Shown here: positions 4,653-20,129 of the stretch, in pieces
Layout of the letters: every line of letters starts with the position of its first letter
Position numbering within the stretch: the first letter of the stretch is position 1
IMG/VR virus record: IMGVR_UViG_3300014031_000065
Location: 1 to 25,010 of that record
Source: a virus
Lineage: Duplodnaviria; Caudoviricetes
Direction: 5' to 3' (one strand)
DNA: 25,010 nucleotides
Made by a program: the position numbers and the translations under genes
Notes under the pieces: generated by a model
Database searches by the model: none
Seen by the model: the letters and a program-made list of their open reading frames with translations, nothing else
Told to the model about the DNA's origin: nothing

Positions 4653-4661
4653 TGCTAAGCT
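4653..4661 (+). promoter_or_regulatory. Extended -10 promoter (TGCTAAGCT) upstream of mini-tmRNA and RNase P RNA
   Basis: TGnTAnnnT match; the same class of site precedes each RNA array. Confidence 0.5.
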
Positions 4662-4701
4662 TCTTCTTGTCGCACTAGGGCTCGAATACCTACGCGGCAG
4701 A

Positions 4702-4781
4702 GGGGCAGATTCGGTATCGACGGCGACGTAACGCCTCCAAGGGGCACTTGCCGGACGTGGGTTCGAATCCCACCTGCTCCA
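4702..4781 (+). ncRNA. ssrA: Miniature tmRNA: tRNA-like domain only, no tag reading frame
   Basis: 5' GGGGCAGATTCGGTATCGAC and 3' GGAC-GTGGG-TTCGAAT-CCCAC-CTGCTCC-A match the tmRNA termini. G3:U70 and A73 alanine identity; unpaired D-loop; only about 31 nt of hairpin between the halves. Confidence 0.85.
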
Positions 4782-5059
4782 TGTTGTCACTGGACTACGG
4801 CTGCCGAAGCAGGTAGAGGAAGTTCAGGCCACTCCGGTTGGGGCCAACCCTTCCAGAGATACTGAGCCGTGTTGAGGGAGCCCCGAAGGGTCTTTTGAAC
4901 CTCAGCGGGTAAGCGGAGTGTGACCTCAGAATAGATGCCCGAAGCGCAAGCCGGGGCAGTCAAGGTTGAGGGCGGCGGGAAGCTCGCAAGGGTCCGCCAC
5001 GCGCAAGCGTGAGAAAGATCGTAGTCTGCAAAACAGAATCCTGGCTACATGTGACAACA
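4782..5059 (+). ncRNA. rnpB: RNase P RNA, compact form
   Basis: P1 TGTTGTCAC/GTGACAACA; P2 GGACTACGG/TCGTAGTCT; P3; CR-I GAGGAAGTTCAGG pairs with CR-V ACAGAATCCTGGCTAC (P4, bulged U); P5 CACTCC/GGAGTG; P15 with AATAG and GGT; GNRA-capped P18; CR-IV AGAAAGAT. Confidence 0.88.
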
Positions 5060-5064
5060 AGATG

Positions 5065-5073
5065 TGCTAGAGT
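5065..5073 (+). promoter_or_regulatory. Extended -10 promoter (TGCTAGAGT) for tRNA array 1
   Basis: TGnTAnnnT match about 45 nt before the first tRNA. Confidence 0.55.
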
Positions 5074-5116
5074 TATCGGAACGCGCCGGTAGGGTCAAAC
5101 CGAGCCGGCGCTCCAA

Positions 5117-5187
5117 GGGGGACTCGTTCAACGGAAGGACGTGAAGCTTGCACCTTCAAGATCAGAGTTCGATTCTCTGGTTCTCCA
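5117..5187 (+). tRNA. tRNA-Ala(TGC)
   Basis: Cloverleaf, G3:U70, loop CT TGC AC. Confidence 0.92.
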
Positions 5188-5197
5188 TGCAGTACAC

Positions 5198-5271
5198 GCT
5201 GGATTAGCTCAGTTGGTTAGAGCGCCGCTCTGATAAGGCGGAGGTCCAAGGTTCAAGTCCTTGATCCAGTA
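5198..5271 (+). tRNA. tRNA-Ile(GAT)
   Basis: Canonical cloverleaf, loop CT GAT AA. Confidence 0.95.
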
Positions 5272-5274
5272 TGA

Positions 5275-5347
5275 AGTCCTTTAGCTCAGTTGGTAGAGCG
5301 CCTTTCCTACAAAAAGGAGGCCCAGGGTTCGAGCCCCTGAGGGACTA
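5275..5347 (+). tRNA. tRNA-Val(TAC), C33
   Basis: Cloverleaf, loop CC TAC AA. Confidence 0.9.
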
Positions 5348-5351
5348 CTTC

Positions 5352-5423
5352 GGGCCGCTAGCTCAGCGGGAGAGTGCCTAGTCGACAACTAGGAAGCCGC
5401 AAGTTCGATCCTTGCGCGGCCCA
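5352..5423 (+). tRNA. tRNA-Val(GAC), C33
   Basis: Cloverleaf, loop TC GAC AA. Confidence 0.9.
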
Positions 5424-5425
5424 TT

Positions 5426-5492
5426 GCCTGTGAGGTGTATGAGCACGCCAGCCCGAAAGGTTGGAGGCCGGGGTAGAGTCCCCGCACAGGTA
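5426..5492 (+). tRNA. Atypical tRNA-like element (nominal GAA anticodon)
   Basis: All four stems pair, but the D-loop is ATGA, the T-loop is TAGAGT and the anticodon loop is CCGAAAG. Confidence 0.55.
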
Positions 5493-5496
5493 ACAT

Positions 5497-5569
5497 GCAA
5501 CAGTAGCTCAGTTGGTAGAGCGTCACCTTGCCAAGGTGAATGTCGCGAGTTCGAATCTCGTCTGTTGCT
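5497..5569 (+). tRNA. tRNA-Gly(GCC)
   Basis: Canonical cloverleaf, U73. Confidence 0.95.
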
Positions 5570-5572
5570 TAC

Positions 5573-5643
5573 GCCTCCAAAGCTTTATGGATGAGCACCA
5601 GGTTCTTACCCTGGGGAACTACGTTCGATTCGTAGTGGGGGTA
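5573..5643 (+). tRNA. tRNA-Lys(CTT)
   Basis: Cloverleaf, loop TT CTT AC. Confidence 0.88.
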
Positions 5644-5647
5644 CTGC

Positions 5648-5720
5648 AGGAGCGTAGCTCAGAGGCCAGAGCAGCGGGCTTTTACCCCGATGTGCGTGAG
5701 TTCGACTCTCACCGCTCCCA
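5648..5720 (+). tRNA. tRNA-Lys(TTT)
   Basis: Cloverleaf, loop CT TTT AC; A1-C72 and G27-A43 mismatches. Confidence 0.85.
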
Positions 5721-5723
5721 TAC

Positions 5724-5796
5724 GCTGACGAAGCTCATTTGGTAGAGTTCTCCCCTGGTACGGGAGCGGTTGCGAGTTCGAATCTCGTCGTCAGCT
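5724..5796 (+). tRNA. tRNA-Thr(GGT)
   Basis: Cloverleaf, loop CT GGT AC. Confidence 0.9.
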
Positions 5797-5799
5797 TAC

Positions 5800-5871
5800 T
5801 GCGGAATGGGGTAATGGCAGCCTGCCGGCCTTTGAAGCCGGACGATCTAGGTTCGAGTCCTAGTTCCGCAG
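5800..5871 (+). tRNA. tRNA-Gln(TTG)
   Basis: U1-A72, G73, loop CT TTG AA. Confidence 0.92.
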
Positions 5872-5875
5872 CTTC

Positions 5876-5947
5876 GCACCTAAAGCATTGATGGCGATGC
5901 ACGGCTCTTGTAAAGCTGAGAACAGAGTTCGATTCTCTGTGGGTGCT
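5876..5947 (+). tRNA. tRNA-Thr(TGT)
   Basis: Cloverleaf, loop CT TGT AA. Confidence 0.9.
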
Positions 5948-5950
5948 TGT

Positions 5951-6017
5951 GCCGGATCGTCTGGGACGACCCGTCCTTCGTACGGACGGTAGCTGAGTTC
6001 AATTCTCAGATTCGGCT
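5951..6017 (+). tRNA. tRNA-Thr(CGT) with miniature D-arm
   Basis: Acceptor, anticodon and T arms intact; D-arm CGTC-TGG-GACG. Confidence 0.75.
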
Positions 6018-6020
6018 TAC

Positions 6021-6092
6021 GCGAGAGTGGTGTCAATGGCAGCACAAGACCCTTCCAAGGTTTTGGTGCCGGTTCGAGTCCGGTCTCTCGCT
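6021..6092 (+). tRNA. tRNA-Gly(TCC)
   Basis: Canonical cloverleaf, U73. Confidence 0.93.
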
Positions 6093-6164
6093 TACAGTCA
6101 GACGCAAAGGCGTCTTCGCAGGACCGGGTTGAGCGCCGGCGGCTCCGGTAATCAGTCCGGGCTA

Positions 6165-6237
6165 GGTACTGTAACTCAGCCGGTAGAGTGGCGCTCTGAA
6201 AAGGCGCAGGTCGAGGGTTCGAGCCCCTCCGGTACCA
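6165..6237 (+). tRNA. tRNA-Phe(GAA)
   Basis: Canonical cloverleaf, loop CT GAA AA. Confidence 0.95.
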
Positions 6238-6243
6238 CTGTCG

Positions 6244-6296
6244 AGAAATCCCGACTTGCACCCATTCCGGAGGCAATGTCGGGATTTTCGTCGTTC
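6244..6296. terminator. Hairpin terminator between tRNA array 1 and convergent genes
   Basis: GAGAAATCCCGAC...GTCGGGATTTTC followed by GTCGTT. Confidence 0.65.
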
Positions 6297-6478
6297 TAGG
6301 CTTGGTCGCCTTCCCAAAGCTTCGGAGCGCGCTCTGGGTTGGGCTGTAGCTGCTCCGTGAGCGCAACGAACCGCTCAACCTCCTTCTGGAAGAGCGCCTG
6401 CTGCCTCGCCCGCTCTGCTGGCGACGGCTCGTAGGTGCGTCCGGGGATCAAGTCCCACATGGGGTAGTCCTCAGGCAT
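6296..6478 (-). CDS. Hypothetical protein, 60 aa (MPEDYPMWDL...)
   Basis: ATG 6478 after GGGAGAGGG; overlaps the end of the phosphoesterase gene. Confidence 0.65.
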   Translation of the reverse strand: MPEDYPMWDLIPGRTYEPSPAERARQQALFQKEVERFVALTEQLQPNPERAPKLWEGDQA

Positions 6479-7136
6479 TTCCCTCTCCCTTCGCTTGGTG
6501 AAACTCCTTGCGCGACCGGGCATCCTCGATCTGCGCCTCCGTGGTCTGCGGGTACTCCCCCAGCAACACAGCGTCGAGTAGCAGCTTGAGGTTGACGGGC
6601 CGGTACTTGGTCTGCTCGACCGACAGGTTCACGTGCTGCGCGATGAACGGCACCCACGCCTCGCGGCTGTAGCCGTTGTTGTGGATATGCCCATGAAGGC
6701 GGAGGTCGTAGCCCTGCATCGCGCCGTCTTCCTCTGGATTCCAGGGGTAGTGGGAAAAGCTGACGACGTACGGCCGCCTGCCGTGCATCGCACCCTTGTA
6801 AAGCACCGAGAACGGGCTCACGATGTTGAAGCCAGACTGCTTGTAGAAGCTGAATCGCTGGTTGTCGTGGTTGCCCCGGATGAGTAGCTTGCGCTCACCT
6901 GTCAGTTCCTTAGCGATTAGGTGCTTGAATCGCGCGTTACTGCGGTAGCACACGTCGCCAAGGTGGATCAAGGTGGCGTCATCCGGGACCTCCTTGCGCC
7001 ACTCAGCGATCATCACCTGCTCGTGATCCTCCGGGCGGTGGCAGAAGCCAATAATGTTATCATGGCCGTAATGAGTGTCGCTGGTGACCCAAGTGTTCGC
7101 GGGGTCGATATCGTCCCGGAACTTCACGGGCTTCAT
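6471..7136 (-). CDS. Calcineurin-like metallophosphoesterase
   Basis: Motifs SDTHYGH, HLGD, RGNHD, SHYP, HGHIH. Confidence 0.92.
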   Translation of the reverse strand: MKPVKFRDDIDPANTWVTSDTHYGHDNIIGFCHRPEDHEQVMIAEWRKEVPDDATLIHLGDVCYRSNARFKHLIAKELTGERKLLIRGNHDNQRFSFYKQSGFNIVSPFSVLYKGAMHGRRPYVVSFSHYPWNPEEDGAMQGYDLRLHGHIHNNGYSREAWVPFIAQHVNLSVEQTKYRPVNLKLLLDAVLLGEYPQTTEAQIEDARSRKEFHQAKGEGNA

Positions 7137-7381
7137 CGCTCAATCACCTGCAGCTGGAAGCGGTGGAACCATTCGTTGCGCCGCTCGTCTCCGGGCGCGA
7201 TGTACGAGACCTTGAAGTAGTCCCTGCCGCGCCGGAAGTCCGCCATTTGCAGCACAACACCCTCTCGGCCGTTGTTGAACGTGTACTCGGCATGCGTGGT
7301 CCTGTCGATGTGCGGCGACGTACGGACGATTACGACCTTTGATCCGACCTGCGGATCGGGAAACATCTGTGAGTCTCGCAT
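7133..7381 (-). CDS. Hypothetical protein, 82 aa
   Basis: AGGAGG RBS; ATGA overlap with the phosphoesterase. Confidence 0.8.
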   Translation of the reverse strand: MRDSQMFPDPQVGSKVVIVRTSPHIDRTTHAEYTFNNGREGVVLQMADFRRGRDYFKVSYIAPGDERRNEWFHRFQLQVIER

Positions 7382-7494
7382 ATGACCTCCTGCGCGTATC
7401 AGTCGCGCCAGTTCGAGCGAAACAGGAGCGTTTCGCCCTAGTATCGTACCACTTTGGGCCGTTTGGCGCTTACGGGCATAGGATTGTAGGGGAA

Positions 7495-7674
7495 ATGACC
7501 AACGTAACCTGCGACGACTGCCCCTTCAAGCTAGCCTGCCCGTACAAAGCGGCCAGTAAGCGTCGCTGCCGGGTAGGGGGTGCATCCGACTGCGTACTAC
7601 AGCGTTTCGTGGGCGGCGCTCATGCTGCTTTCACTTCTGGTATAGTCCTAAAACGCGCTGTCGCGCATTGGTGA
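7495..7674 (+). CDS. Small Cys-rich protein, 59 aa (MTNVTCDDCPFKLACPY...)
   Basis: TAGGAT -10-like box and AGGGG upstream; CxxC plus three more Cys; the 3' end runs into tRNA-Tyr. Confidence 0.45.
   Translation: MTNVTCDDCPFKLACPYKAASKRRCRVGGASDCVLQRFVGGAHAAFTSGIVLKRAVAHW
7638..7646 (+). promoter_or_regulatory. Extended -10 promoter (TGGTATAGT) for tRNA array 2
   Basis: TGnTATAnT, 10 nt before tRNA-Tyr. Confidence 0.65.
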
Positions 7675-7734
7675 GCAACGGGGACTGTAAATCCCTGACC
7701 TCTGGTCTTGCAGGTTCGACTCCTGACGGCAGCA
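7657..7734 (+). tRNA. tRNA-Tyr(GTA), irregular D-arm
   Basis: Loop CT GTA AA, variable arm GACC-TCT-GGTC, A73. Confidence 0.82.
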
Positions 7735-7737
7735 TAC

Positions 7738-7822
7738 GGAAGGTGAGCCTCGCATCGGTGCGGGGACCGGATTCGAAACCCGGTGGACTACCAAGTCAGG
7801 CGTTCGAATCGTCCTCCTTCCT
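7738..7822 (+). tRNA. tRNA-Ser(CGA), 8/4 fold
   Basis: Loop TT CGA AA, long variable arm, 8-position acceptor with one U-U, 4-bp T-stem. Confidence 0.75.
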
Positions 7823-7903
7823 TACGATTCGCTTGCTAAGTCCAGCCGGGAACCTCTGCGGAGGCCGAGCGCGTCAGTCCCGTCGCGGGTAAGCGGGGCA
7901 CAA

Positions 7904-7975
7904 GTCACGTTGACCGAGCAGGCAAGGTAGAGGGCTGCAACCCCTCGCACACTGGTTCGAATCCAGTACGTGACT
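7904..7975 (+). tRNA. tRNA-Cys(GCA)
   Basis: Cloverleaf, U73, loop CT GCA AC. Confidence 0.92.
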
Positions 7976-7978
7976 TAC

Positions 7979-8063
7979 GGATGGTGAAGTCGCAAGGCGC
8001 GGCGCTCGCCTGCTAAGCGAAGCGGGCCTTCACGGGTCTGGATTTCGAGTATCCCGCCATCCG
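7979..8063 (+). tRNA. tRNA-Ser(GCT), 8/4 fold
   Basis: Acceptor GGATGGTG/CGCCATCC, T-stem GGAT/ATCC, G73. Confidence 0.82.
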
Positions 8064-8067
8064 CTTC

Positions 8068-8150
8068 GGAGAGTGAACCCGCAGGGCGTGGGGTACGACT
8101 GGAAATCGCTACGGGGTTACGGCCTTGGGCTTCGATTGCTCCGCTCTCCG
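8068..8150 (+). tRNA. tRNA-Ser(GGA), 8/4 fold
   Basis: Acceptor GGAGAGTG/CGCTCTCC, T-stem GGGC/GCTC, G73. Confidence 0.82.
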
Positions 8151-8335
8151 CTTTCGCTGCGCGGCTTCCGCTGCTCGGCAGCGAACCCCTTAGCGAACCC
8201 GTACAGGAAAAACGGCGCTACTGCGAGCACGAACACCGCGATCAAGGCCGCCAACACCCAGTAAAAGGCGATGACGGCCATGACTGCGCCCGTGGCGAGC
8301 GTAATCACGACGAGCAGCGCGAAGATGTCGCCCAT
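8117..8335 (-). CDS. Small membrane protein, 72 aa, two hydrophobic segments
   Basis: ATG 8335 coupled to the cca stop (TGATG); about 45 hydrophobic residues; tail is antisense to tRNA-Ser(GGA). Confidence 0.7.
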   Translation of the reverse strand: MGDIFALLVVITLATGAVMAVIAFYWVLAALIAVFVLAVAPFFLYGFAKGFAAEQRKPRSESGERSNRSPRP

Positions 8336-9861
8336 CAGACGCCACGCAGCGCGGCGTTGAGCTGCCACTCACGGGAGCGCTTCTGCTCAGACGGGTCAAC
8401 GGCGACCTCATCAAGCACGCGCGCGAGCACGCGGCCAACGTCGCGCCCGGTGGCGCCCAGCAACATCACGTCATGGCCGTTGATCGCCAGATCGCCGGCA
8501 GACGCCGGAACCTTAGCGAGCTTAGCCCGCTGGCGCTCGTTTTCCATCTCAGCGATGTTGGTCAGGTACTTGAGGTTGATCGAAGCACCGCCCTTGCCGC
8601 TGAGGTCGCACATCCGGTGCATGTACAGCATCGACAACAGCTCATCGCCCAGCTCAACGCGGGCGCGGCGGACCTTGACCGGGTTGACCTTCTGTAGCGG
8701 GACCATGTGGTTGAGGATCAGCGTGCCAACGGAGTCGCGCATCTTCTTGTCCACGTTCAGGCGCGCGGCAGTAGCGCCCCAGATGCGGGCGCTAACGACC
8801 TCGTGGTCCTCCGGGCGAACCCACTCCCAATCCCGCGCGTCGAGGGTTCCCCGCAGCGCAGCTGCCTCAGCCCCGGTAGGGGCGTAGTAGTGCGTCCGGC
8901 CGTCGGTGCCAGTCCACGCGGAATCCGGCTTGCCGGAGTCGTGGAACAGCAGCGCCATGCGGACTTCCAGCGGCGCGTCAACGTGCGCCGCCGTTTCCAG
9001 CGCCGTGAACGTGTGCTCGTCGGTGGTCATGTCGTGGTAGCGGCTGCCCTGCTCGAAGCCGATCATCGGAGCGAGTTCCGGCAGCAGAGTTTCCAGCACT
9101 CCGGTATCGCGAGCGATCCGCAGAGCGCGGGCAACGTCCTTGCCCATCAGCAGCTTCTTGAGTTCGTCGTAGATCGTCCCGCTCGGGTAGCCGTTCGCGC
9201 TCAGGCCGGTGACGGCGCTGGCGTGCTCGGCCATCTGGTTGAGCGTCACGCCCGCGAGGTCGTAGCCCAGCACGGACACGAACCGGAGTGCGCGGAGGGT
9301 CCGAAGCGGATCATCCCGGAAGCTGTCCGGGTGAGTCGTGCGGATGTAGCCCCGCTCAAGATCAAAGAGGCCCGCCCCGGTCGGATCGAGCACGTACGGA
9401 GGATCGCCGGCGGATTCCTCGCGGAAATCGTCGGTGATCGGCTTGTACAGCGCGTTGAATGTGAAATCGCGGCGCAGGGCGTCGTCGGCCAGCGACAGCA
9501 TCGGGTCAATCTCGATGTGGAAGTCCCGGTGGCCCGGTCCGGTGCTCACGTCGGTACGCGGGAGTACAATCTCGATCACGCCGAGGCCACGTGCGCTTAC
9601 GCGCCAGCCAGCCTGTCGGCCGTCGCGCAGCTTGAGCTTGGTCACGGCGCTGTCCGGGTACTGGTCTCGCGTCAGAAGCAGCCGCAGAGCATCGCCCAGC
9701 TCCCGGAGACCGGCCCGGCGGACCATGTAGTCAGCATCCTTGACCCGGCGACCAAGAAGCTCGTCGCGGACGCTACCGCCGACGCGGTAGACCTCGAAGC
9801 CAATGTCGCGGTGATCCAGTTGACGCATGAAATCGTCTGTGCGGGAGATGTAATCGTTCAT
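8335..9861 (-). CDS. cca: Class II tRNA nucleotidyltransferase (CCA-adding type) with HD domain
   Basis: Motifs VGGSVRD-x-DAD, RRDFTFNA, SFRDDPLRTLRALRF, HDSGKP, C-terminal LAINGHD. ATG 9861 lies 7 nt after TGCTAGGAT. Confidence 0.93.
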   Translation of the reverse strand: MNDYISRTDDFMRQLDHRDIGFEVYRVGGSVRDELLGRRVKDADYMVRRAGLRELGDALRLLLTRDQYPDSAVTKLKLRDGRQAGWRVSARGLGVIEIVLPRTDVSTGPGHRDFHIEIDPMLSLADDALRRDFTFNALYKPITDDFREESAGDPPYVLDPTGAGLFDLERGYIRTTHPDSFRDDPLRTLRALRFVSVLGYDLAGVTLNQMAEHASAVTGLSANGYPSGTIYDELKKLLMGKDVARALRIARDTGVLETLLPELAPMIGFEQGSRYHDMTTDEHTFTALETAAHVDAPLEVRMALLFHDSGKPDSAWTGTDGRTHYYAPTGAEAAALRGTLDARDWEWVRPEDHEVVSARIWGATAARLNVDKKMRDSVGTLILNHMVPLQKVNPVKVRRARVELGDELLSMLYMHRMCDLSGKGGASINLKYLTNIAEMENERQRAKLAKVPASAGDLAINGHDVMLLGATGRDVGRVLARVLDEVAVDPSEQKRSREWQLNAALRGV

Positions 9862-9932
9862 GCCAAGCATCCTAGCAGAAGTGGTACGAAGGCGCAAGGG
9901 CGGGACGACCCGCAACAGCAGGCACGGCAATG

Positions 9933-9941
9933 TGCTAAGGT
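9933..9941 (+). promoter_or_regulatory. Extended -10 promoter (TGCTAAGGT) for tRNA array 3, divergent from the cca promoter
   Basis: TGnTAnnnT, 10 nt before tRNA-Gln. Confidence 0.6.
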
Positions 9942-9951
9942 TCGTTTCTGC

Positions 9952-10023
9952 TGCGGATTGGTGTAACTGGCAACACGCTAGGTTCTGACCCTGGTATTTC
10001 GAGTTCAAATCTTGAATCCGCAT
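9952..10023 (+). tRNA. tRNA-Gln(CTG)
   Basis: U1-A72, loop TT CTG AC. Confidence 0.9.
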
Positions 10024-10026
10024 TAC

Positions 10027-10101
10027 TGATGGTGAGTCGTCCGGGCGACGACGCTCGGCTGTTACCCGAGAAAGAGCAGAGTTCGAGTCTCTGACCATCA
10101 G
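10027..10101 (+). tRNA. tRNA-Asn(GTT)
   Basis: U1-A72, G73, loop CT GTT AC. Confidence 0.85.
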
Positions 10102-10105
10102 CTTT

Positions 10106-10178
10106 CAGTGTATGGCGCAGTTGGTAGCGCGCTCCCCTCGGACGGGAGAGGTCGTAGGTTCAAGTCCTACTACACTGA
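10106..10178 (+). tRNA. tRNA-Pro(CGG), A37
   Basis: C1-G72, A73, loop CT CGG AC. Confidence 0.93.
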
Positions 10179-10183
10179 CTTTC

Positions 10184-10260
10184 GGCGCGGTCCCTGTCTA
10201 ACTGGCTAAGACCTCAGGTTTTCACCCTGAATGATGCGGGTTCGAATCCCGTCCGCGCTT
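10184..10260 (+). tRNA. tRNA-Glu(TTC), with 5-nt acceptor-to-D linker
   Basis: Loop TT TTC AC; TCCCT in place of positions 8-9. Confidence 0.85.
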
Positions 10261-10298
10261 CTACGGAGCCCAAACCATACAAGTAGCGAGGTGTTCGA

Positions 10299-10415
10299 AT
10301 GGCACGAAAGAAGTCCGCAGCGAAGAAGTCCTCACCGAAGTTTGGTTCACCCGCTTGGTTCGCCAAGTACCCTAAGGCGGGTAGGGTTGCCGGGAAGAAA
10401 AAGAAGAAGAAGTAG
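10299..10415 (+). CDS. Lys-rich basic micro-protein, 38 aa (MARKKSAAKKSSPKFGSPAWFAKYPKAGRVAGKKKKKK)
   Basis: Hand translation; GAGGTG Shine-Dalgarno; fills the gap between two tRNA-Glu genes. Confidence 0.7.
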   Translation: MARKKSAAKKSSPKFGSPAWFAKYPKAGRVAGKKKKKK

Positions 10416-10424
10416 GGTCTCTAC

Positions 10425-10499
10425 GCTCCATTCGTCTATCGGTTAGGACGCCGGGTTCTCAACCCGGAAGGACGAGTTCAATTCTCGTATGGAGTACCA
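10425..10499 (+). tRNA. tRNA-Glu(CTC), CCA encoded
   Basis: Cloverleaf, loop TT CTC AA, ends ACCA. Confidence 0.93.
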
Positions 10500-10573
10500 C
10501 AGGGTGTAGCTCAGTTTGGCAGAGTCCTCGGTTTGGAACCGAGTTGTCGTTGGTTCGAATCCAACCATCCTGA
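10500..10573 (+). tRNA. tRNA-Pro(TGG), A37
   Basis: C1-G72, loop TT TGG AA. Confidence 0.93.
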
Positions 10574-10576
10574 TAA

Positions 10577-10658
10577 GCCGACGTGGTGGAACGGTATACA
10601 CACTGGTTTTAGAAACCAGCGCCCCACGGGATTGAGGGTTCGACTCCCTCCGTCGGTA
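10577..10658 (+). tRNA. tRNA-Leu(TAG), A37
   Basis: Long variable arm, A73, loop TT TAG AA. Confidence 0.92.
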
Positions 10659-10662
10659 CTAC

Positions 10663-10735
10663 GCACCACTAGCCCAACGGCAGAGGCATCCGGTTCAAGC
10701 CCGGTAAAGTCAGAGTTCGAATCTCTGGTGGTGTA
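10663..10735 (+). tRNA. tRNA-Leu(CAA) with short variable loop
   Basis: Leu-type D-arm, A73, loop TT CAA GC, 5-nt variable region. Confidence 0.85.
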
Positions 10736-10738
10736 TAC

Positions 10739-10812
10739 ATCCTCGTAGCTCAGTTGGACAGAGCGCTACCCTGCGAAGGTAGAGGTCACTGGTTCAAGTC
10801 CAGTCGGGGATG
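10739..10812 (+). tRNA. tRNA-Arg(GCG)
   Basis: Cloverleaf with A20, loop CT GCG AA, G73. Confidence 0.92.
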
Positions 10813-10816
10813 CTTA

Positions 10817-10890
10817 GGTTATGTAGCTGAGTTGGTTACAGCACCCGGTTGTCAACCGGAAGATCGTGGGTTCGAGTCCCATCATAACCG
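10817..10890 (+). tRNA. tRNA-Asp(GTC)
   Basis: Cloverleaf, G73, loop TT GTC AA. Confidence 0.92.
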
Positions 10891-10970
10891 CTAGGATGGG
10901 CCTAGGGTGAACTGGCCCTGTAAAGGAAGTCAGGAAGTGACCCCGTGACTTCTCCTTAGCGTCCCTACGC

Positions 10971-11038
10971 CTCCTCGGTTGAGGACAACACGCGGGCCTT
11001 CGAAGCCTGCTATTTCGGTTCGACTCCGAACGAGGGGT
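10971..11038 (+). tRNA. tRNA-Arg(TCG) with miniature D-arm
   Basis: Acceptor CTCCTCG/CGAGGGG, loop CT TCG AA, D-arm GTTG-AGGA-CAAC. Confidence 0.72.
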
Positions 11039-11055
11039 TTGCTATAGTTCGTAGC

Positions 11056-11249
11056 ATGAAAACCTGCTCCAAATGCCGTGCCAGCAAGCCTGACGCTGAT
11101 TTTCATTACAAGCCGGTGAACAGGCTGGATTGCTACTGCAAGCCATAAAGAACTGCGAACTGGTTTGCGCTAACTGCCGCCGCGTCAGGACTCAGGAGCG
11201 CCTGACTGCAGCGCGTGATACAGTACAACGACCAAGTGGGGCGCGCTAA
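11056..11249 (+). pseudogene. Decayed HNH endonuclease gene (internal deletion and frameshift)
   Basis: MKTCSKC...DF...LDCYCKP-stop, then in a shifted frame IKNCELVCANCRRVRT (CANCH motif with H to R). TGCTATAGT promoter sits 6 nt before the ATG. Confidence 0.7.
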
Positions 11250-11310
11250 GCGGTCGAGCACCTAGATTGTGAATCTAGTGTTGAACAGGGTTCGAGTCCC
11301 TGGCCTCACC
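11236..11310 (+). tRNA. tRNA-His(GTG), no encoded G-1
   Basis: Acceptor GTGGGGC/GCCTCAC, C73, loop TT GTG AA; base at -1 is A. Confidence 0.82.
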
Positions 11311-11312
11311 CC

Positions 11313-11383
11313 GGAGAATAGGCGACGGTTGCCGGCGAGATTCCAAACCTCGCGTCGAGTGGGTTCGATTCCTACATTCTCCG
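11313..11383 (+). tRNA. tRNA-Trp(CCA), short D-arm
   Basis: G73, loop TT CCA AA. Confidence 0.8.
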
Positions 11384-11388
11384 CTTAC

Positions 11389-11461
11389 GCCAGCGTAGCT
11401 CAGTAGGCAGAGCAGACCCTTCATACGGGCCGTGTCGAAGGTTCGAGTCCTTCCGTTGGCA
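11389..11461 (+). tRNA. tRNA-Met(CAT) elongator (Ile2 not excluded)
   Basis: Cloverleaf, loop TT CAT AC, A73. Confidence 0.85.
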
Positions 11462-11466
11462 CTTTC

Positions 11467-11534
11467 CTCCCCGAAGGTGGAACACGTAGCGGCTCCTACC
11501 CGCATCGTCGCCAGTTCGAATCTGGCCGGGGAGT
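11467..11534 (+). tRNA. tRNA-Arg(CCT) with miniature D-arm
   Basis: Acceptor CTCCCCG/CGGGGAG, loop CT CCT AC, D-arm GTG-GAA-CAC. Confidence 0.75.
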
Positions 11535-11536
11535 TA

Positions 11537-11622
11537 CGCAGATGACGAGGCTGTAGTAGCCTGCCTGGGCCCATAACCCACGGAGTCATCGACAACCGGT
11601 GCGACCCCGGCATCTGCTACCA
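11537..11622 (+). tRNA. Atypical initiator tRNA-fMet(CAT), CCA encoded
   Basis: C1-U72 mismatch, three G-C pairs closing the CC CAT AA loop, ACCA end; T-loop TGCGACC; long variable region. Confidence 0.7.
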
Positions 11623-11672
11623 CTTCATGTGGTACGATCCCCAGACGGTTCGCTCTGGGGGCGTCCTCACTC

Positions 11673-11710
11673 AAGCCGGTACCCTGAGATGGGTGCCGGC
11701 TTTTGTCGTT
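11673..11710. terminator. Intrinsic terminator between tRNA array 3 and the convergent operon
   Basis: AAGCCGGTACCC-TGAGAT-GGGTGCCGGCTT-TTGTCGTT. Confidence 0.8.
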
Positions 11711-12385
11711 CTAGGACTCAAACGTGTGCAGGATTTGTACCGGCGTGTCGTACAAAGTGTACGTTTCATCAACCGCTGATACGTTGTACACGGGCAGCCC
11801 CGACACGCTCGCGGCCCCACGGGCCTCGTGGATGTGGCCGCAGATCGTTACGTCCGGCCGCGCGCGCTCGATGGCGCGGTTGATCGACGCGTCCCCGACG
11901 TACCACCCGCGAGACACGCGGTCGCGGGCGCCGTAGGGCGGCCCATGCGTCACCAGCAGGTCCAGTCCGGCCGGGATTAGCTGCGCCCGGTGCTCTAGCG
12001 CCTCGTCGGAGGCGTAAAAGGCCCAGCGCAGGAGGTTTGGCACCCAAGGAGTGCCCCAGACCCGCAATCCCGCAACCCTAGCCTCGCTATCCTGCAGTAG
12101 AGTCCAGGGGAGGCTCTCGACAATCTCCCGGATGGCGGGCTCCTGCGACTCGCCCACGAAGTCGTGGTTCCCCCAGATCGCGACGACTTCGCAGTCGAGC
12201 GCGTTCAGCCAGTCCCGCAGCGCGTTGTCGCACCACCAAGCCTGCCAGTGAGCGGCCTCGGAGCTGAGGCTCAGGTCCAGGTTGGGGCTGTCCGGGCACA
12301 CATCGCCGGCGATTACCAGAACGTCGCACTCTGGAACGTCCGGGAGGTTGCCGTGGAGGTCAGCGGTGACGGCGACGCGGGGCAT
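11711..12385 (-). CDS. Calcineurin-like metallophosphoesterase (Icc/239FB-like)
   Basis: Motifs ADLHG, AGD, GNHD, THGPP, CGHIHE; ATG 12385 coupled to the upstream TGA. Confidence 0.92.
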   Translation of the reverse strand: MPRVAVTADLHGNLPDVPECDVLVIAGDVCPDSPNLDLSLSSEAAHWQAWWCDNALRDWLNALDCEVVAIWGNHDFVGESQEPAIREIVESLPWTLLQDSEARVAGLRVWGTPWVPNLLRWAFYASDEALEHRAQLIPAGLDLLVTHGPPYGARDRVSRGWYVGDASINRAIERARPDVTICGHIHEARGAASVSGLPVYNVSAVDETYTLYDTPVQILHTFES

Positions 12386-12606
12386 CAGGGAACCCACACG
12401 GCGCCGGAGCGCTTGACCCCGTGCAGCAGGAGCTTGGTAGGGTCGAGCCCCGTACCACGGCGGCCCTGCTCCTGCTCTGCGACCAACGCGTCGATCGCAA
12501 GCTGAATTACGTTGTCCCCGCGCGCGTCGAAGGAGACCACAGTGATTTCTGAGTCGGTCATCGACCTGTGCCCAAACCGCACGTCCCATAGCTGCCCGCG
12601 CCTCAT
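12385..12606 (-). CDS. Hypothetical protein, 73 aa
   Basis: Coupled at both ends (ATGA, TGATG). Confidence 0.7.
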   Translation of the reverse strand: MRRGQLWDVRFGHRSMTDSEITVVSFDARGDNVIQLAIDALVAEQEQGRRGTGLDPTKLLLHGVKRSGAVWVP

Positions 12607-17516: not shown

Positions 17517-20129
17517 TTGTCTCATGCACCCTTCGATGCGCCCTTCGCGCACGGAATCTACAAGCAGAAGTACGCCCAGCAGGGTGAAGAGTGGCAGGAC
17601 ACCGCGTTCCGTGTGGTTGAGCACGTCATGGGGGCCGTTGACATGGCCGACACCGTTGAGGCCGGGATTCTGGCGTCCCTGATCGACGCCCGCAAGTTCA
17701 TCCCCGGCGGACGGTACCTCTACGCTTCGGGCCGCGACCTGCATCAGGTCCAGAACTGCCTGCTGCTGCGCGCGGAGGACACGCGCGAGGGATGGTCGCA
17801 GCTCGTCAGCGATTCGACGATGGCGCTGATGACCGGCGCAGGGATCGGGGTCTGGTATGGCGACGTTCGCTGCTCGGGCTCCGTCATCACGCGGACCGGA
17901 GGAACGGCCAGCGGCCCGATCAGCCTGATGAAGATGGTCAACGAGGTTGGCCGCAACGTCATGCAAGGCGGCGCGCGACGCTCCGCTATCTGGGCGGGCC
18001 TCCCTTGGTGGCATCCCGACGTGTTCGAGTTCATTCGGTCGAAGGACTGGTCCCAGGACGTGCGGGCGCTCAAGGAAAAAGACTTCACCTTCCCGGCCGA
18101 CCTCGACATGACGAACATCAGCGTCACGCTCGACAAGGACTTCTTCGACGCGTACAACGATGAGACCTCGTTCGTCAGCGTGCGGAGCACGCTCGATGCG
18201 CCAGATGGCCGCTCGTGGAATGAATGGGCGCGCGAGGTCTACGAGCTAGTCGTGGACAAGATGCTCACGACGGCCGAGCCGGGCTTCTCGGTGGACTACG
18301 ACAACGCGTCCGAGAACCTCAGGAACGCGCCAGTTACGGGCGAAACTCAGGTGCTCACAGATCGCGGATATCGCGCCGTACGCAGCATTGTGGGTAAGCC
18401 AACATCTGTCTGGACTGGAAAGCAGTGGGCCTCCGGCGTAGTGTTCGAGCAAACTAAGGCCGACGCCGAGGTGGTCCGGGTTGAGATTAGCGGGGGCAGG
18501 TTTGTGCGCTGTGATCCGGAACACGAGTTCTTGGTGGAGAGGCGCGTCGTCGGGCAGCCAACAAGTATTGGTCGTGTAGGGGCCGGTGCTCTCGTGGTCG
18601 GCGATACGCTGCATGTGGCGCTGCCCGTGGGTGAGGCGGCGACGGACCAGGACGACTATGAGCTAGGCTATATCTACGGCGACGGATCGTTTGCTAAGGC
18701 GGGAGGTGCTGAGGTTACGTTCTGCACCGACGAATCGAAAGCGTGCGCGGCCTCTTTTGCGGGACACGCCAGCATGAATATGCACGACTCTCGCGGGCAT
18801 ATCCGCGCGTACTACAGTGTCAATCGTCGGTTTGCCGGGCGCAGCAAGGACAAGTTTCCCGATGATGTTGGGTGCCTAAACTCGTTTCTAGCCGGGCTAT
18901 TTGACGCCGATGGCAACTACGAGCTAATCCAGCGGCGGGTCAGGCTATCGTCTAAGCACCGCAGCTTCTTGGCGGGCGCGGCTCGCGCGCTAGAGTCGCT
19001 TGGCATTCTCGCCGGAGTGTCAAAGGCGGGAACGTCAACGTACGGTAAGGCGCAGGGCTGGCAGCTTGTTGTCAACCGCGACTTCAATGATGAGTTTGCG
19101 CGTTTGATTCCCTGCCTGCGTTTGCGGGTTCCTGCCCGCTCCGGGAAGGGATACAGGCCAGCGGCGTTGAAGGTGCTCGCTGTGGCGCCTGATGGTCGCG
19201 AAGACGTTTTCTGCGCTGACGTGGGGGTACCCGAGCACTCATTCGTTGCTGAGGGGGTTGTCCTCTCGAACTGCACAGAAATCACGTCGGAGGACGACTC
19301 CGATGTGTGTAACCTCGGCTCGCTCAACATGGCGGCGTTCACTTCGCTCGAAGAGTTCCGGCAGGCCGTTGACCTTGCCACGCTGTTCCTAGTTGCCGGC
19401 ACGGTCTACTCCGACCTGCCATACGACAAGGTTCACGCGACCCGCGAGAAGAACCGGAGGCTCGGCCTCGGGATCATGGGCGTTCACGAGTGGCTACTCA
19501 AGCGCGGCAAGAAGTACGGCCCGGACGACGAGCTGGCGAAGTGGCTTGAGGTCTACGCCACCTCTACCGAGTATGCGCACAAGTGGGCCGACGCCGTCGG
19601 TGTGAGCCGCCCAATCAAGACGCGGGCGATCGCCCCCAACGGCACTATCGGAATCATCGCGGAAACCACCACTTCGGCCGAGCCGATCTTCGCGTCCGCC
19701 TTCAAGCGCCGCGTACGCAACGCTTCGGCGCAGGGTGACACGGTGCAGTACGAGTACGTCGTGGACCCCACAGCGGCCCGCCTCGTGGCTGACGGTGTTG
19801 ACCCCGCGATCATCGAGGACGCGTATTCGCTCTCCTACGACGTGGAGCGTCGCGTGGCGTTCCAGCATTGGCTACAGCAGTACGTGGATCACGGCATCTC
19901 GTCCACCGTCAACCTGCCGAGGGTCATCGACGACCCGGCCGAGCAGCGCGAGTTCGGGGAGATGTTGATGAAGTACCTTCCGGGACTACGCGGAATCACG
20001 GCGTACCCGGACGGATCACGGGGCGGACAGCCCCTAACAGCGGTCCCGATCGAGTTCGCGCTCGACAAGACCGGAGTGCGCTTCGAAGAGGCCGAGGACC
20101 GCTGCGTGGGCGGTCTCTGCGGCGTATAA
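17517..20129 (+). CDS. nrdJ: Class II (adenosylcobalamin-dependent) ribonucleotide reductase with intein
   Basis: Motifs FIPGGRYL, NC, GGARRSA, EPG, spliced NACTE, VCNLGS, RRLGLG, IAPNGT, VDHGISST, GITAYPDGSR, C-terminal CxxxxC; AGGAGG RBS. Confidence 0.92.
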   Translation: MSHAPFDAPFAHGIYKQKYAQQGEEWQDTAFRVVEHVMGAVDMADTVEAGILASLIDARKFIPGGRYLYASGRDLHQVQNCLLLRAEDTREGWSQLVSDSTMALMTGAGIGVWYGDVRCSGSVITRTGGTASGPISLMKMVNEVGRNVMQGGARRSAIWAGLPWWHPDVFEFIRSKDWSQDVRALKEKDFTFPADLDMTNISVTLDKDFFDAYNDETSFVSVRSTLDAPDGRSWNEWAREVYELVVDKMLTTAEPGFSVDYDNASENLRNAPVTGETQVLTDRGYRAVRSIVGKPTSVWTGKQWASGVVFEQTKADAEVVRVEISGGRFVRCDPEHEFLVERRVVGQPTSIGRVGAGALVVGDTLHVALPVGEAATDQDDYELGYIYGDGSFAKAGGAEVTFCTDESKACAASFAGHASMNMHDSRGHIRAYYSVNRRFAGRSKDKFPDDVGCLNSFLAGLFDADGNYELIQRRVRLSSKHRSFLAGAARALESLGILAGVSKAGTSTYGKAQGWQLVVNRDFNDEFARLIPCLRLRVPARSGKGYRPAALKVLAVAPDGREDVFCADVGVPEHSFVAEGVVLSNCTEITSEDDSDVCNLGSLNMAAFTSLEEFRQAVDLATLFLVAGTVYSDLPYDKVHATREKNRRLGLGIMGVHEWLLKRGKKYGPDDELAKWLEVYATSTEYAHKWADAVGVSRPIKTRAIAPNGTIGIIAETTTSAEPIFASAFKRRVRNASAQGDTVQYEYVVDPTAARLVADGVDPAIIEDAYSLSYDVERRVAFQHWLQQYVDHGISSTVNLPRVIDDPAEQREFGEMLMKYLPGLRGITAYPDGSRGGQPLTAVPIEFALDKTGVRFEEAEDRCVGGLCGV
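18330..19271 (+). mobile_element. 314-aa intein with LAGLIDADG homing endonuclease, Pro at position 1
   Basis: PVTGETQVLT...VVLSN inserted between LRNA and CTEI; blocks LGYIYGDGS and FLAGLFDADG; block F VFC; codon usage differs from the exteins. Confidence 0.92.

Follow-up and report, generated by a model that had tools for sequence, protein, structure and literature searches.

A remodelled RNase P RNA in the tRNA island of an uncultured soil phage

The island and its genes

The stretch of DNA studied here (the window, 25 kb, IMG/VR record IMGVR_UViG_3300014031_000065) is a virus record with about 21% of the genome complete, and it comes from an uncultured soil phage. Between positions 4653 and 11710 it carries an island in which three transfer RNA (tRNA) arrays stand together with an RNase P RNA (hereafter P RNA), a tag-less transfer-messenger RNA (tmRNA), a gene for a CCA-adding enzyme with an HD domain and a gene for a metallophosphoesterase. 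A second metallophosphoesterase gene adjoins it; both had been noticed in an earlier, sequence-only reading of this DNA. The main features are as follows.

4702..4781, plus strand: tag-less tmRNA (tRNA-like domain only), 80 nucleotides (nt), with a 7-bp acceptor stem, G3-U70, A73, no encoded CCA and no reading frame
4782..5059, plus strand: remodelled P RNA, 278 nt, from hand-parsed helices and the profile of relatives
5117..6237, plus strand: tRNA array 1, 13 genes (Ala, Ile, Val x2, Gly x2, Lys x2, Thr x3, Gln, Phe)
5426..5492, plus strand: tRNA-shaped element inside array 1, with no canonical 7-nt anticodon loop
6471..7136, minus strand: metallophosphoesterase 1, 221 amino acids, phrog_547; nearest solved structure Aquifex aq_1665 (1xm7)
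7657..8150, plus strand: tRNA array 2, 5 genes (Tyr, Ser x3, Cys), with an extended -10 motif at 7638
8335..9861, minus strand: class II tRNA nucleotidyltransferase with HD domain, 508 amino acids, PF01743, phrog_2244 (E 8e-49)
9952..11622, plus strand: tRNA array 3, 16 genes (Gln, Asn, Pro x2, Glu x2, Leu x2, Arg x3, Asp, His, Trp, Met, initiator-like Met)
11537..11622, plus strand: divergent initiator-like tRNA-Met(CAT), with a C1-U72 mismatch, three G-C anticodon-stem pairs, C33, a degenerate T-loop and encoded CCA
11673..11710, plus strand: intrinsic-terminator-like hairpin that closes the island
11711..12388, minus strand: metallophosphoesterase 2, 225 amino acids, MPPED2/239FB-like (3rl4, E 9e-19), convergent on array 3

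The sequence-only reading had counted about 35 tRNA genes (14+5+16) covering all 20 amino acids plus an initiator. ARAGORN called 27 at the default and 31 at a relaxed threshold, and Ser(GGA), Glu(TTC) and the initiator were added by T-arm and acceptor checks. This gives 34 anticodon-bearing genes (13+5+16) with 33 distinct anticodons for all 20 amino acids. The counts for arrays 2 and 3 thus stand, while array 1 has one gene fewer; the fourteenth was probably the tRNA-shaped element at 5426-5492, a mimic. The coverage also holds, with a divergent initiator whose identity rests on features that we take to mark initiator tRNAs. As had been claimed, CCA is encoded by only two of the 34 genes: the initiator-like Met and Glu(CTC), in which the CCA also makes up the whole 3-nt gap before the following gene. 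Intergenic gaps are of 2-5 nt in 24/33 cases.

The public sequencing run that matches best is a soil metagenome, from which the window may have come; its contigs tile the island region with two 1-nt spacer differences from the window and are not independent support. In both public runs the contigs are one T longer than the window at 10659 and again at 10735, so two window spacers may be 1 nt short.

The P RNA keeps a bacterial fold with a reduced specificity domain

The elements of the P RNA are all on the plus strand. P3, P16 and the conserved regions I, IV and V are also present.

4782-90/5051-59: P1, 9 bp
4792-99/5020-27: P2, 8 bp
4821-29/5039-46: P4, a pseudoknot with a bulged U
4830-36/4914-20: P5, 7 bp
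4837-4913: reduced specificity domain (S-domain), 77 nt
4921-23: J5/15, with G at position 248 (E. coli nucleotide numbering, after the reviews PMC11143913 and PMC10731613)
4924-27/4968-71: P15, with L15 GGU at 4964-66
4974-98: extra helix 5' of P18
4998-5011: P18, GNRA-capped

Rfam gave no match to the window P RNA at E up to 10, and unconstrained folding reached a z of only -2.8 and did not recover P4. However, a sequence-only profile (no covariance model) built from 7 relatives, with the window excluded, matches 4791-5049 at E 1.3e-16 and 53.6 bits, against at most 4.5 bits in 30 shuffles. The earlier claim of an RNase P RNA in the island is therefore borne out by the conserved helices and this profile, though Rfam does not see it. 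Over 19 phage RNAs P4 pairs in 151/152 cells (shuffle mean 129.6, maximum 137), with compensatory changes. P4 and P5 taken together pair in 88/88 cells with 13 double changes, a result matched by 0/500 shuffles and by slid controls at no more than 47%. P2, P5 and P15 were placed by a best-pairing search, which inflates their pairing counts. In addition, of 10 related phage records tested, 8 match RF00010 with E values no higher than 6e-8 (27-189 bits), one of them over the cut-off. The conserved fold indicates that the phage P RNA is a bacterial-type RNase P RNA.

With the bacterial type A RNase P RNA (RF00010, E. coli M1) the window molecule shares P1-P5, the bulged U of P4, regions I, IV and V, P15 with L15 GGU and a GNRA-capped P18. 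It differs from type A in being phage-encoded and below the Rfam threshold, in having no evident P6 pseudoknot, in its G248 and the extra helix 5' of P18, and in its S-domain, which measures 67-111 nt across the phage clade, with no recognisable P13/P14, against about 166 nt in the host lineage. The phage copy is also fused to an upstream tRNA-like element, and no gene for the protein subunit RnpA was found in relatives (0/5 records). A full S-domain with two T-loops, P6 and a score at the RF00010 gathering level are all missing from the window P RNA; because it has no RF00010 match and no full S-domain, we have not filed it as type A.

This reduction raises the alternative that the P RNA has little or no activity of its own and serves as a decoy for RnpA, forming, in tandem with an SmpB-sequestering tmRNA, an inhibitor cassette against host RNA-protein machines. 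The molecule indeed keeps P2, P3, P4 and regions IV and V, presumably its RnpA-binding parts, while much of the S-domain and A248 are lost. It would also share a transcript with an RNA of a kind known to inhibit: passages of PMC4131195 and PMC11915505 describe inhibition of tmRNA by a similar molecule. Nevertheless, we regard a decoy as very improbable, since the bulged U, L15 GGU, P5 and P15, which serve catalysis and substrate binding, are kept across the phage family. RNase P RNAs devoid of the S-domain are still able to cut, according to a section of PMC11143913, and the phage's own 34 precursors need 5' processing.

A first P4 motif scan of viral contigs returned 15 loci, of which 13 lie in tRNA arrays, one is a chance match and one is a P-like RNA without tRNAs. 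Three further scans brought the set to 36 distinct parsed P RNAs, that of the window included, plus two recognised by eye; chance matches made up 1/15, 11/16, 5/12 and 15/32 loci in the four scans. No cultured phage or plasmid sequence matched the window P RNA. A complete large phage (G003, 332 kb) carries a near-canonical type A RNase P RNA in a tRNA array (L005, 9988-10282), at 189 bits and over the Rfam cut-off, which may already have been catalogued. At L014 (9943-10246) a P-like RNA with full P4 pairing has no tRNA gene within about 10 kb. A public contig from a second run differs from the window P RNA at 6 bases and one gap, all in the peripheral hairpin at 4882-4898.

A tag-less tmRNA directly precedes the P RNA

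The sequence-only reading had also named a mini-tmRNA, and Rfam agrees: RF00023 scores 61.5 bits (cut-off 47), and a stretch of about 312 nt is reduced to about 21 nt. The tmRNA D-loop and connector motifs and the T-arm are kept. At 4664..4701 on the plus strand, 5' of this element, stands a short hairpin with a T-loop-like loop, a place occupied by longer tRNA-like elements in relatives. P1 of the P RNA starts at the base directly 3' of A73, and in the window and four related loci (L016, L017, L021, L024) it lies 0-1 nt 3' of a tRNA-like element of alanine identity. Because P1 abuts this element, a 3'-processing cut would also generate the 5' end of the P RNA.

Tag-less tmRNAs are found in viral contigs as at least 86 distinct sequences in at least 120 loci (59-88 nt; L356-L475). 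Among the matches listed, 85/86 distinct sequences have a perfect acceptor stem and G3-U70, and most share a bulge-plus-hairpin insert in P2. For 70/86 no tRNA was seen in the flanks (up to 600 nt, shorter for 45/120 loci), and a P RNA directly follows only one of the 86.

SmpB binds tmRNA through features of this kind, and by analogy the window element probably titrates SmpB. The tag-less form is known from mycobacteriophage DS6A, as parts of PMC4131195 and PMC11915505 describe. The tmRNA of DS6A, confined to the tRNA-like domain, has the same alanine identity and likewise no tag frame; unlike it, the window element abuts an RNase P RNA.

A probable CCA-adding enzyme accompanies the CCA-less arrays

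The CCA-adding/HD enzyme is indeed encoded divergently from array 3, as first read, and its likely start is at 9861, not at 10098. Back-to-back extended -10 motifs lie at 9877 (minus strand) and 9933 (plus strand), and the cca transcript is probably leaderless, judging by the motif at 9877. Among 8000 candidates, 2146 were homologues of the enzyme. D45/D47 (DxD), R133-R134-D135 (RRD), H286, H310-D311, H356, H388 and D422 are invariant in 32 aligned homologues, and the flexible loop is of full length, without deletion. We take DxD, the templating RRD and the HD residues to have their usual meanings in CCA enzymes. The best NCBIfam matches are the CCA enzymes PRK10885 and TIGR02692, with which the window protein shares the class II head, RRD, the full-length loop and the invariant HD residues. 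Its scores of 118-121 bits, however, are far under the cut-offs of 451 and 439. A single-sequence CCA scan gave no match. CCA specificity, as against the addition of CC, A or poly(A), is likely, though the scores stay below all NCBIfam cut-offs.

PF01743 scores over the cut-off in 5/5 phages with CCA-less arrays, compared with 3/10 with mostly CCA-encoding arrays (6 of these 10 being incomplete). tRNA arrays occur at 7/8 viral loci with a close CCA homologue, the eighth (L022) having one tRNA.

The core of the island is conserved, its accessories less so

Seven syntenic lineages could be scored: L016, L017, L021, L024, L026, L004 and the L019/L020/L023 group. The P RNA, the CCA enzyme and CCA-less arrays occur together in all seven, and in five the P RNA adjoins array 1. 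The co-occurrence proposed by the sequence-only reading is thus confirmed for this core but not for the mini-tmRNA, which is present in three of the seven. Metallophosphoesterase 1 lies inside the island in six lineages, and metallophosphoesterase 2 in or beside it in five, with none seen in the available L004 stretch.

The metal-binding motifs of both phosphoesterases are intact. The family of the first (aq_1665-like) is mostly viral, and neither family name implies an RNA substrate. That they may heal RNA ends, as the sequence-only reading had put it, is conjecture. There is no RNA ligase gene in the window; one is present in the complete relative, G011 (210 predicted open reading frames, ORFs, of which the 142 of at least 95 amino acids were family-searched).

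It is possible, but on the unlikely side, that the island is an accretion zone of independently gained modules, in which the mini-tmRNA and the phosphoesterases are unrelated to tRNA maturation and the latter, beside a MazG-like gene, act on nucleotides or signals. The patchy mini-tmRNA, its viral kin with tRNA-free flanks and the single case followed by a P RNA all speak for this, as do the absence of phosphoesterase 1 from G011 and the location of phosphoesterase 2 there, about 50 kb from the arrays. What argues against it is that the order of the arrays, the place of cca and the promoter motifs have been kept between genomes whose proteins are 45-60% identical, that phosphoesterase 1 is so regularly inside the island, and that phosphoesterase 2 of G011 stands 1.7 kb from the RNA ligase gene. 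Accretion of this kind is compatible with a functional core, and the phosphoesterases are loosely linked accessories.

The tRNA set, its leaders and its promoter motifs

Under strict wobble rules, 11.4% of codons are left unread (15 window ORFs, 4577 codons). If U34 reads whole four-codon boxes, only 17/4577 remain (UUA 0, AUA 0, AGA 1, UCA 16), and the set then lacks only anticodons for codons that the phage hardly uses. Such four-way reading would need host modification or superwobble.

A is found at leader position -2 in 17/34 window tRNA genes, compared with 7/60 host-lineage genes (p 1e-4), and G at -1 in 0/34. The account given in PMC10731613 counts A(-2) among the features of the optimal pre-tRNA leader in E. 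coli. The tRNA-His gene (11236-11310) has no encoded G-1; the same is true in L017, L018, L026 and L029, and G-1 is present in L016, L021, L023 and L024.

An extended -10 motif, which we assume to act as a promoter, stands directly 5' of every array and of the cca start. The motif is not enriched across the whole window (18 found, 16.6 expected). Besides those at 7638 and 9877, the predicted promoters are:

4653..4661, plus strand: extended -10 motif of the mini-tmRNA/RNase P unit
5065..5073, plus strand: extended -10 motif of array 1, at the same position in relatives
9933, 11040 and 11216, plus strand: extended -10 motifs of array 3

Several smaller elements lie in and around the arrays. At 11040-11232 (plus strand), the promoter motif in array 3 is followed by a broken HNH-like ORF with CxxC motifs in two frames, which resembles a homing-endonuclease relic. 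Folded spacers of 40-80 nt, some tRNA-shaped without an anticodon loop, are found at 5076-5116, 5426-5492, 6093-6164, 7823-7903 and 10891-10970. Relatives also have folded spacers between Gly and Phe and between Ser and Cys, in comparable places and of different sequence, and a comparison by eye found no sequence common to the spacer elements across relatives. Between the two Glu tRNAs lies one further reading frame:

10299..10415, plus strand: lysine-rich ORF, 38 amino acids, 33% lysine, with a ribosome-binding site

An unrelated 44-amino-acid K/R-rich ORF adjoins Glu(TTC) in L017 (near 4679, minus strand), and these ORFs beside Glu tRNAs are possible RNA-binding helpers. Finally, 3' of the initiator tRNA, at 11630-11702 (plus strand), there is another extended -10 motif with two strong hairpins behind it; the hairpins might belong to a small RNA that lies antisense to the terminal part of the phosphoesterase 2 transcript.

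The host lineage and the gene content of relatives

The host is probably a member of Thermoleophilia, because of the cellular relatives of the CCA enzyme and because of shared Arg anticodons and CCA-less tRNA genes. The nearest cellular relatives of the enzyme among 80 genome loci are proteins of Solirubrobacterales and Gaiellaceae (36-46% identity), and the sampled Thermoleophilia genomes agree with the window in having the anticodons Arg(GCG)/Arg(TCG) and tRNA genes that do not encode CCA. In a host-lineage sample of the 20 top-scoring tRNAs from each of three genomes (60 genes), CCA is encoded in 1/60. Across 41 Thermoleophilia genomes, RNase P RNA scores over the cut-off in 40 and RNase Z in 21.

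Because the window holds about 21% of its genome, absences of genes were judged from relatives, whose clade has genomes of about 120-140 kb; one relative, G002, is a provirus. RnpA was seen in 0/5 phage records and SmpB in 0/5 (3 of each at least 90% complete), and no synthetase, RNase Z or tRNA-modification family was found among the 142 ORFs of G011. To call the island self-contained, as had been done, was thus an overstatement. The same 142 ORFs include RtcB, RlaP, an RNA ligase, an RF-1-domain protein, an HD hydrolase and a Nudix protein; the first four correspond to the anti-tRNase kit described in a portion of PMC7824862.

Beyond the island the window carries portal, ribonucleotide reductase, prohead protease and capsid genes. 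The ribonucleotide reductase (17517-20129) contains an intein-like LAGLIDADG/Hom_end insert that is absent from relatives L018 and L021.

A proposed route of tRNA maturation

What the sequences show is a set of genes, laid out alike in relatives, and an RNA fold that is conserved. On this basis we lean towards the reading that the near-complete tRNA set, the CCA enzyme and the P RNA, together with host proteins, mature CCA-less precursors, and that phage translation is likely made less dependent on host tRNAs. Host RNA polymerase would transcribe several units from the extended -10 promoters. Host RNase Z would then cut 3' of each discriminator base, leaving monomers with 2-5-nt leaders, and its cut 3' of the mini-tmRNA would also set the P RNA free at its 5' end. 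The phage nucleotidyltransferase would add CCA, with its HD domain cleaning damaged 3' ends, and the phage P RNA with host RnpA would remove the leader once L15 GGU pairs with the new CCA tail. Host synthetases and modification enzymes would finish the tRNAs. The tag-less tmRNA may be an optional addition that marks where the P RNA is processed and probably titrates SmpB.

Several observations weigh against this route. The host has its own RNase P RNA (40/41 genomes) and CCA-less tRNA genes, with C at -1 in 31/60, so host enzymes, which supply both activities, could process the phage precursors, and the phage might not need a ribozyme of its own. The single P4 miss among the 19 RNAs is the last P4 pair of the window itself, a C-U mismatch (7/8 pairs). 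The window S-domain of 77 nt compares with 165-167 nt in three host-lineage RNAs. In two of the seven lineages the P RNA is 5-10 kb from the arrays, and some close CCA homologues (L022, L032, L104) come from loci that lack arrays. Finally, G at position 248 occurs in the window and in 7 clade lineages and is confined to that clade. A248 is described as conserved and as stacking against the first base pair in parts of PMC11143913 and PMC10731613, and the former states that in E. coli the activation barrier is lowest with A at this position.

Whether A248 pairs with N-1 is disputed in the sections cited of PMC11143913 and PMC10731613. J5/15 reads CAA in 24/26 parsed Thermoleophilia RNAs (2 were mis-parsed, and 8/34 not parsed). 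A coevolution of G248 with C(-1) was considered. The 7 G248 loci have C in 116/184 and U in 27/184 leaders, and 24 A248 loci have C in 101/630 and U in 425/630, a count that leaves out L233 (unclear) and L014, L191, L192 and L242 (fewer than 8 tRNAs). We dropped this link, since the G248 loci are one clade, the A248 loci L006 and L219 are also C-rich, and the host-lineage genes served by an A248 enzyme have the same C(-1) frequency as the window (31/60, p 0.28).

A stronger form of the proposed route is rather doubtful. The P RNA would be an active, re-tuned ribozyme of a new structural type, with a compact S-domain and G248, freed behind an SmpB-decoy tmRNA and specialised for the 2-5-nt A-C leaders of the phage. 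Together with the phage CCA enzyme it would reroute both steps of tRNA end maturation away from host control or self-destruction.

As for the purpose of such a route, the sequence-only reading had supposed that it keeps translation running when host tRNAs or processing enzymes are destroyed. Replacement of tRNAs under a tRNA-targeting defence would fit the repair genes of G011 and accounts in parts of PMC10264068 and PMC7824862. Alternatively, the kit could be a throughput booster with no role in counter-defence, which relieves a bottleneck of host RNase P and CCA addition during a burst of about 35 precursors in a slow-growing soil host. The tRNA set is non-redundant and fits phage codon use, host tRNA genes that are also CCA-less would place the host CCA enzyme in heavy demand, and no host defence was identified. 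We still think this unlikely, as RtcB, RlaP and RNA ligase in G011 repair cut RNA and do not raise supply. Moreover, replacement of cleaved host tRNAs by phage tRNAs has been proposed or shown elsewhere, as portions of PMC10264068, PMC11464382 and PMC11555353 report.

Relation to known systems and meaning

Among the parts of the island, the tRNA arrays, the CCA enzyme and the tag-less tmRNA have known phage counterparts; what is new is the remodelled viral RNase P RNA. Huge and jumbo phages share large tRNA arrays, a CCA enzyme, tmRNA, calcineurin-like or HD phosphatases and RNA ligases, as sections of PMC7162821 and PMC7824862 describe; the clade of the window differs in its smaller genomes, in showing no synthetases and in the added ribozyme. 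The term "RNase P" occurs 0 times in the main texts of these two papers. Searches by title, abstract opening and exact phrase, which did not extend to subscription journals or supplements, turned up no publication about RNase P RNA in phages. RNase P RNAs of Candidate Phyla Radiation (CPR) bacteria are likewise missed at Rfam thresholds and have lost peripheral S-domain helices, in the description given in part of PMC8172020. Those are the cells' own essential genes, about two thirds of them without the CCA-binding motif, whereas the phage copy is additional to that of the host and keeps GGU. By the same source, in the part cited, RNase P RNA counts among the core genes of cells and even serves to gauge genome completeness.

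The phage P RNA family, with at least 36 distinct members mostly under the Rfam cut-off, would show viruses with a multiple-turnover ribozyme that controls tRNA 5' maturation. With its natural G248 and reduced-S-domain variants, both the A248/N-1 contact in dispute and the question of how small a bacterial S-domain can be are open to direct testing. The phage CCA/HD enzyme, in turn, is a candidate means of countering defences that cleave the tails of tRNAs, to which resistance is unknown according to a passage in PMC12851939.

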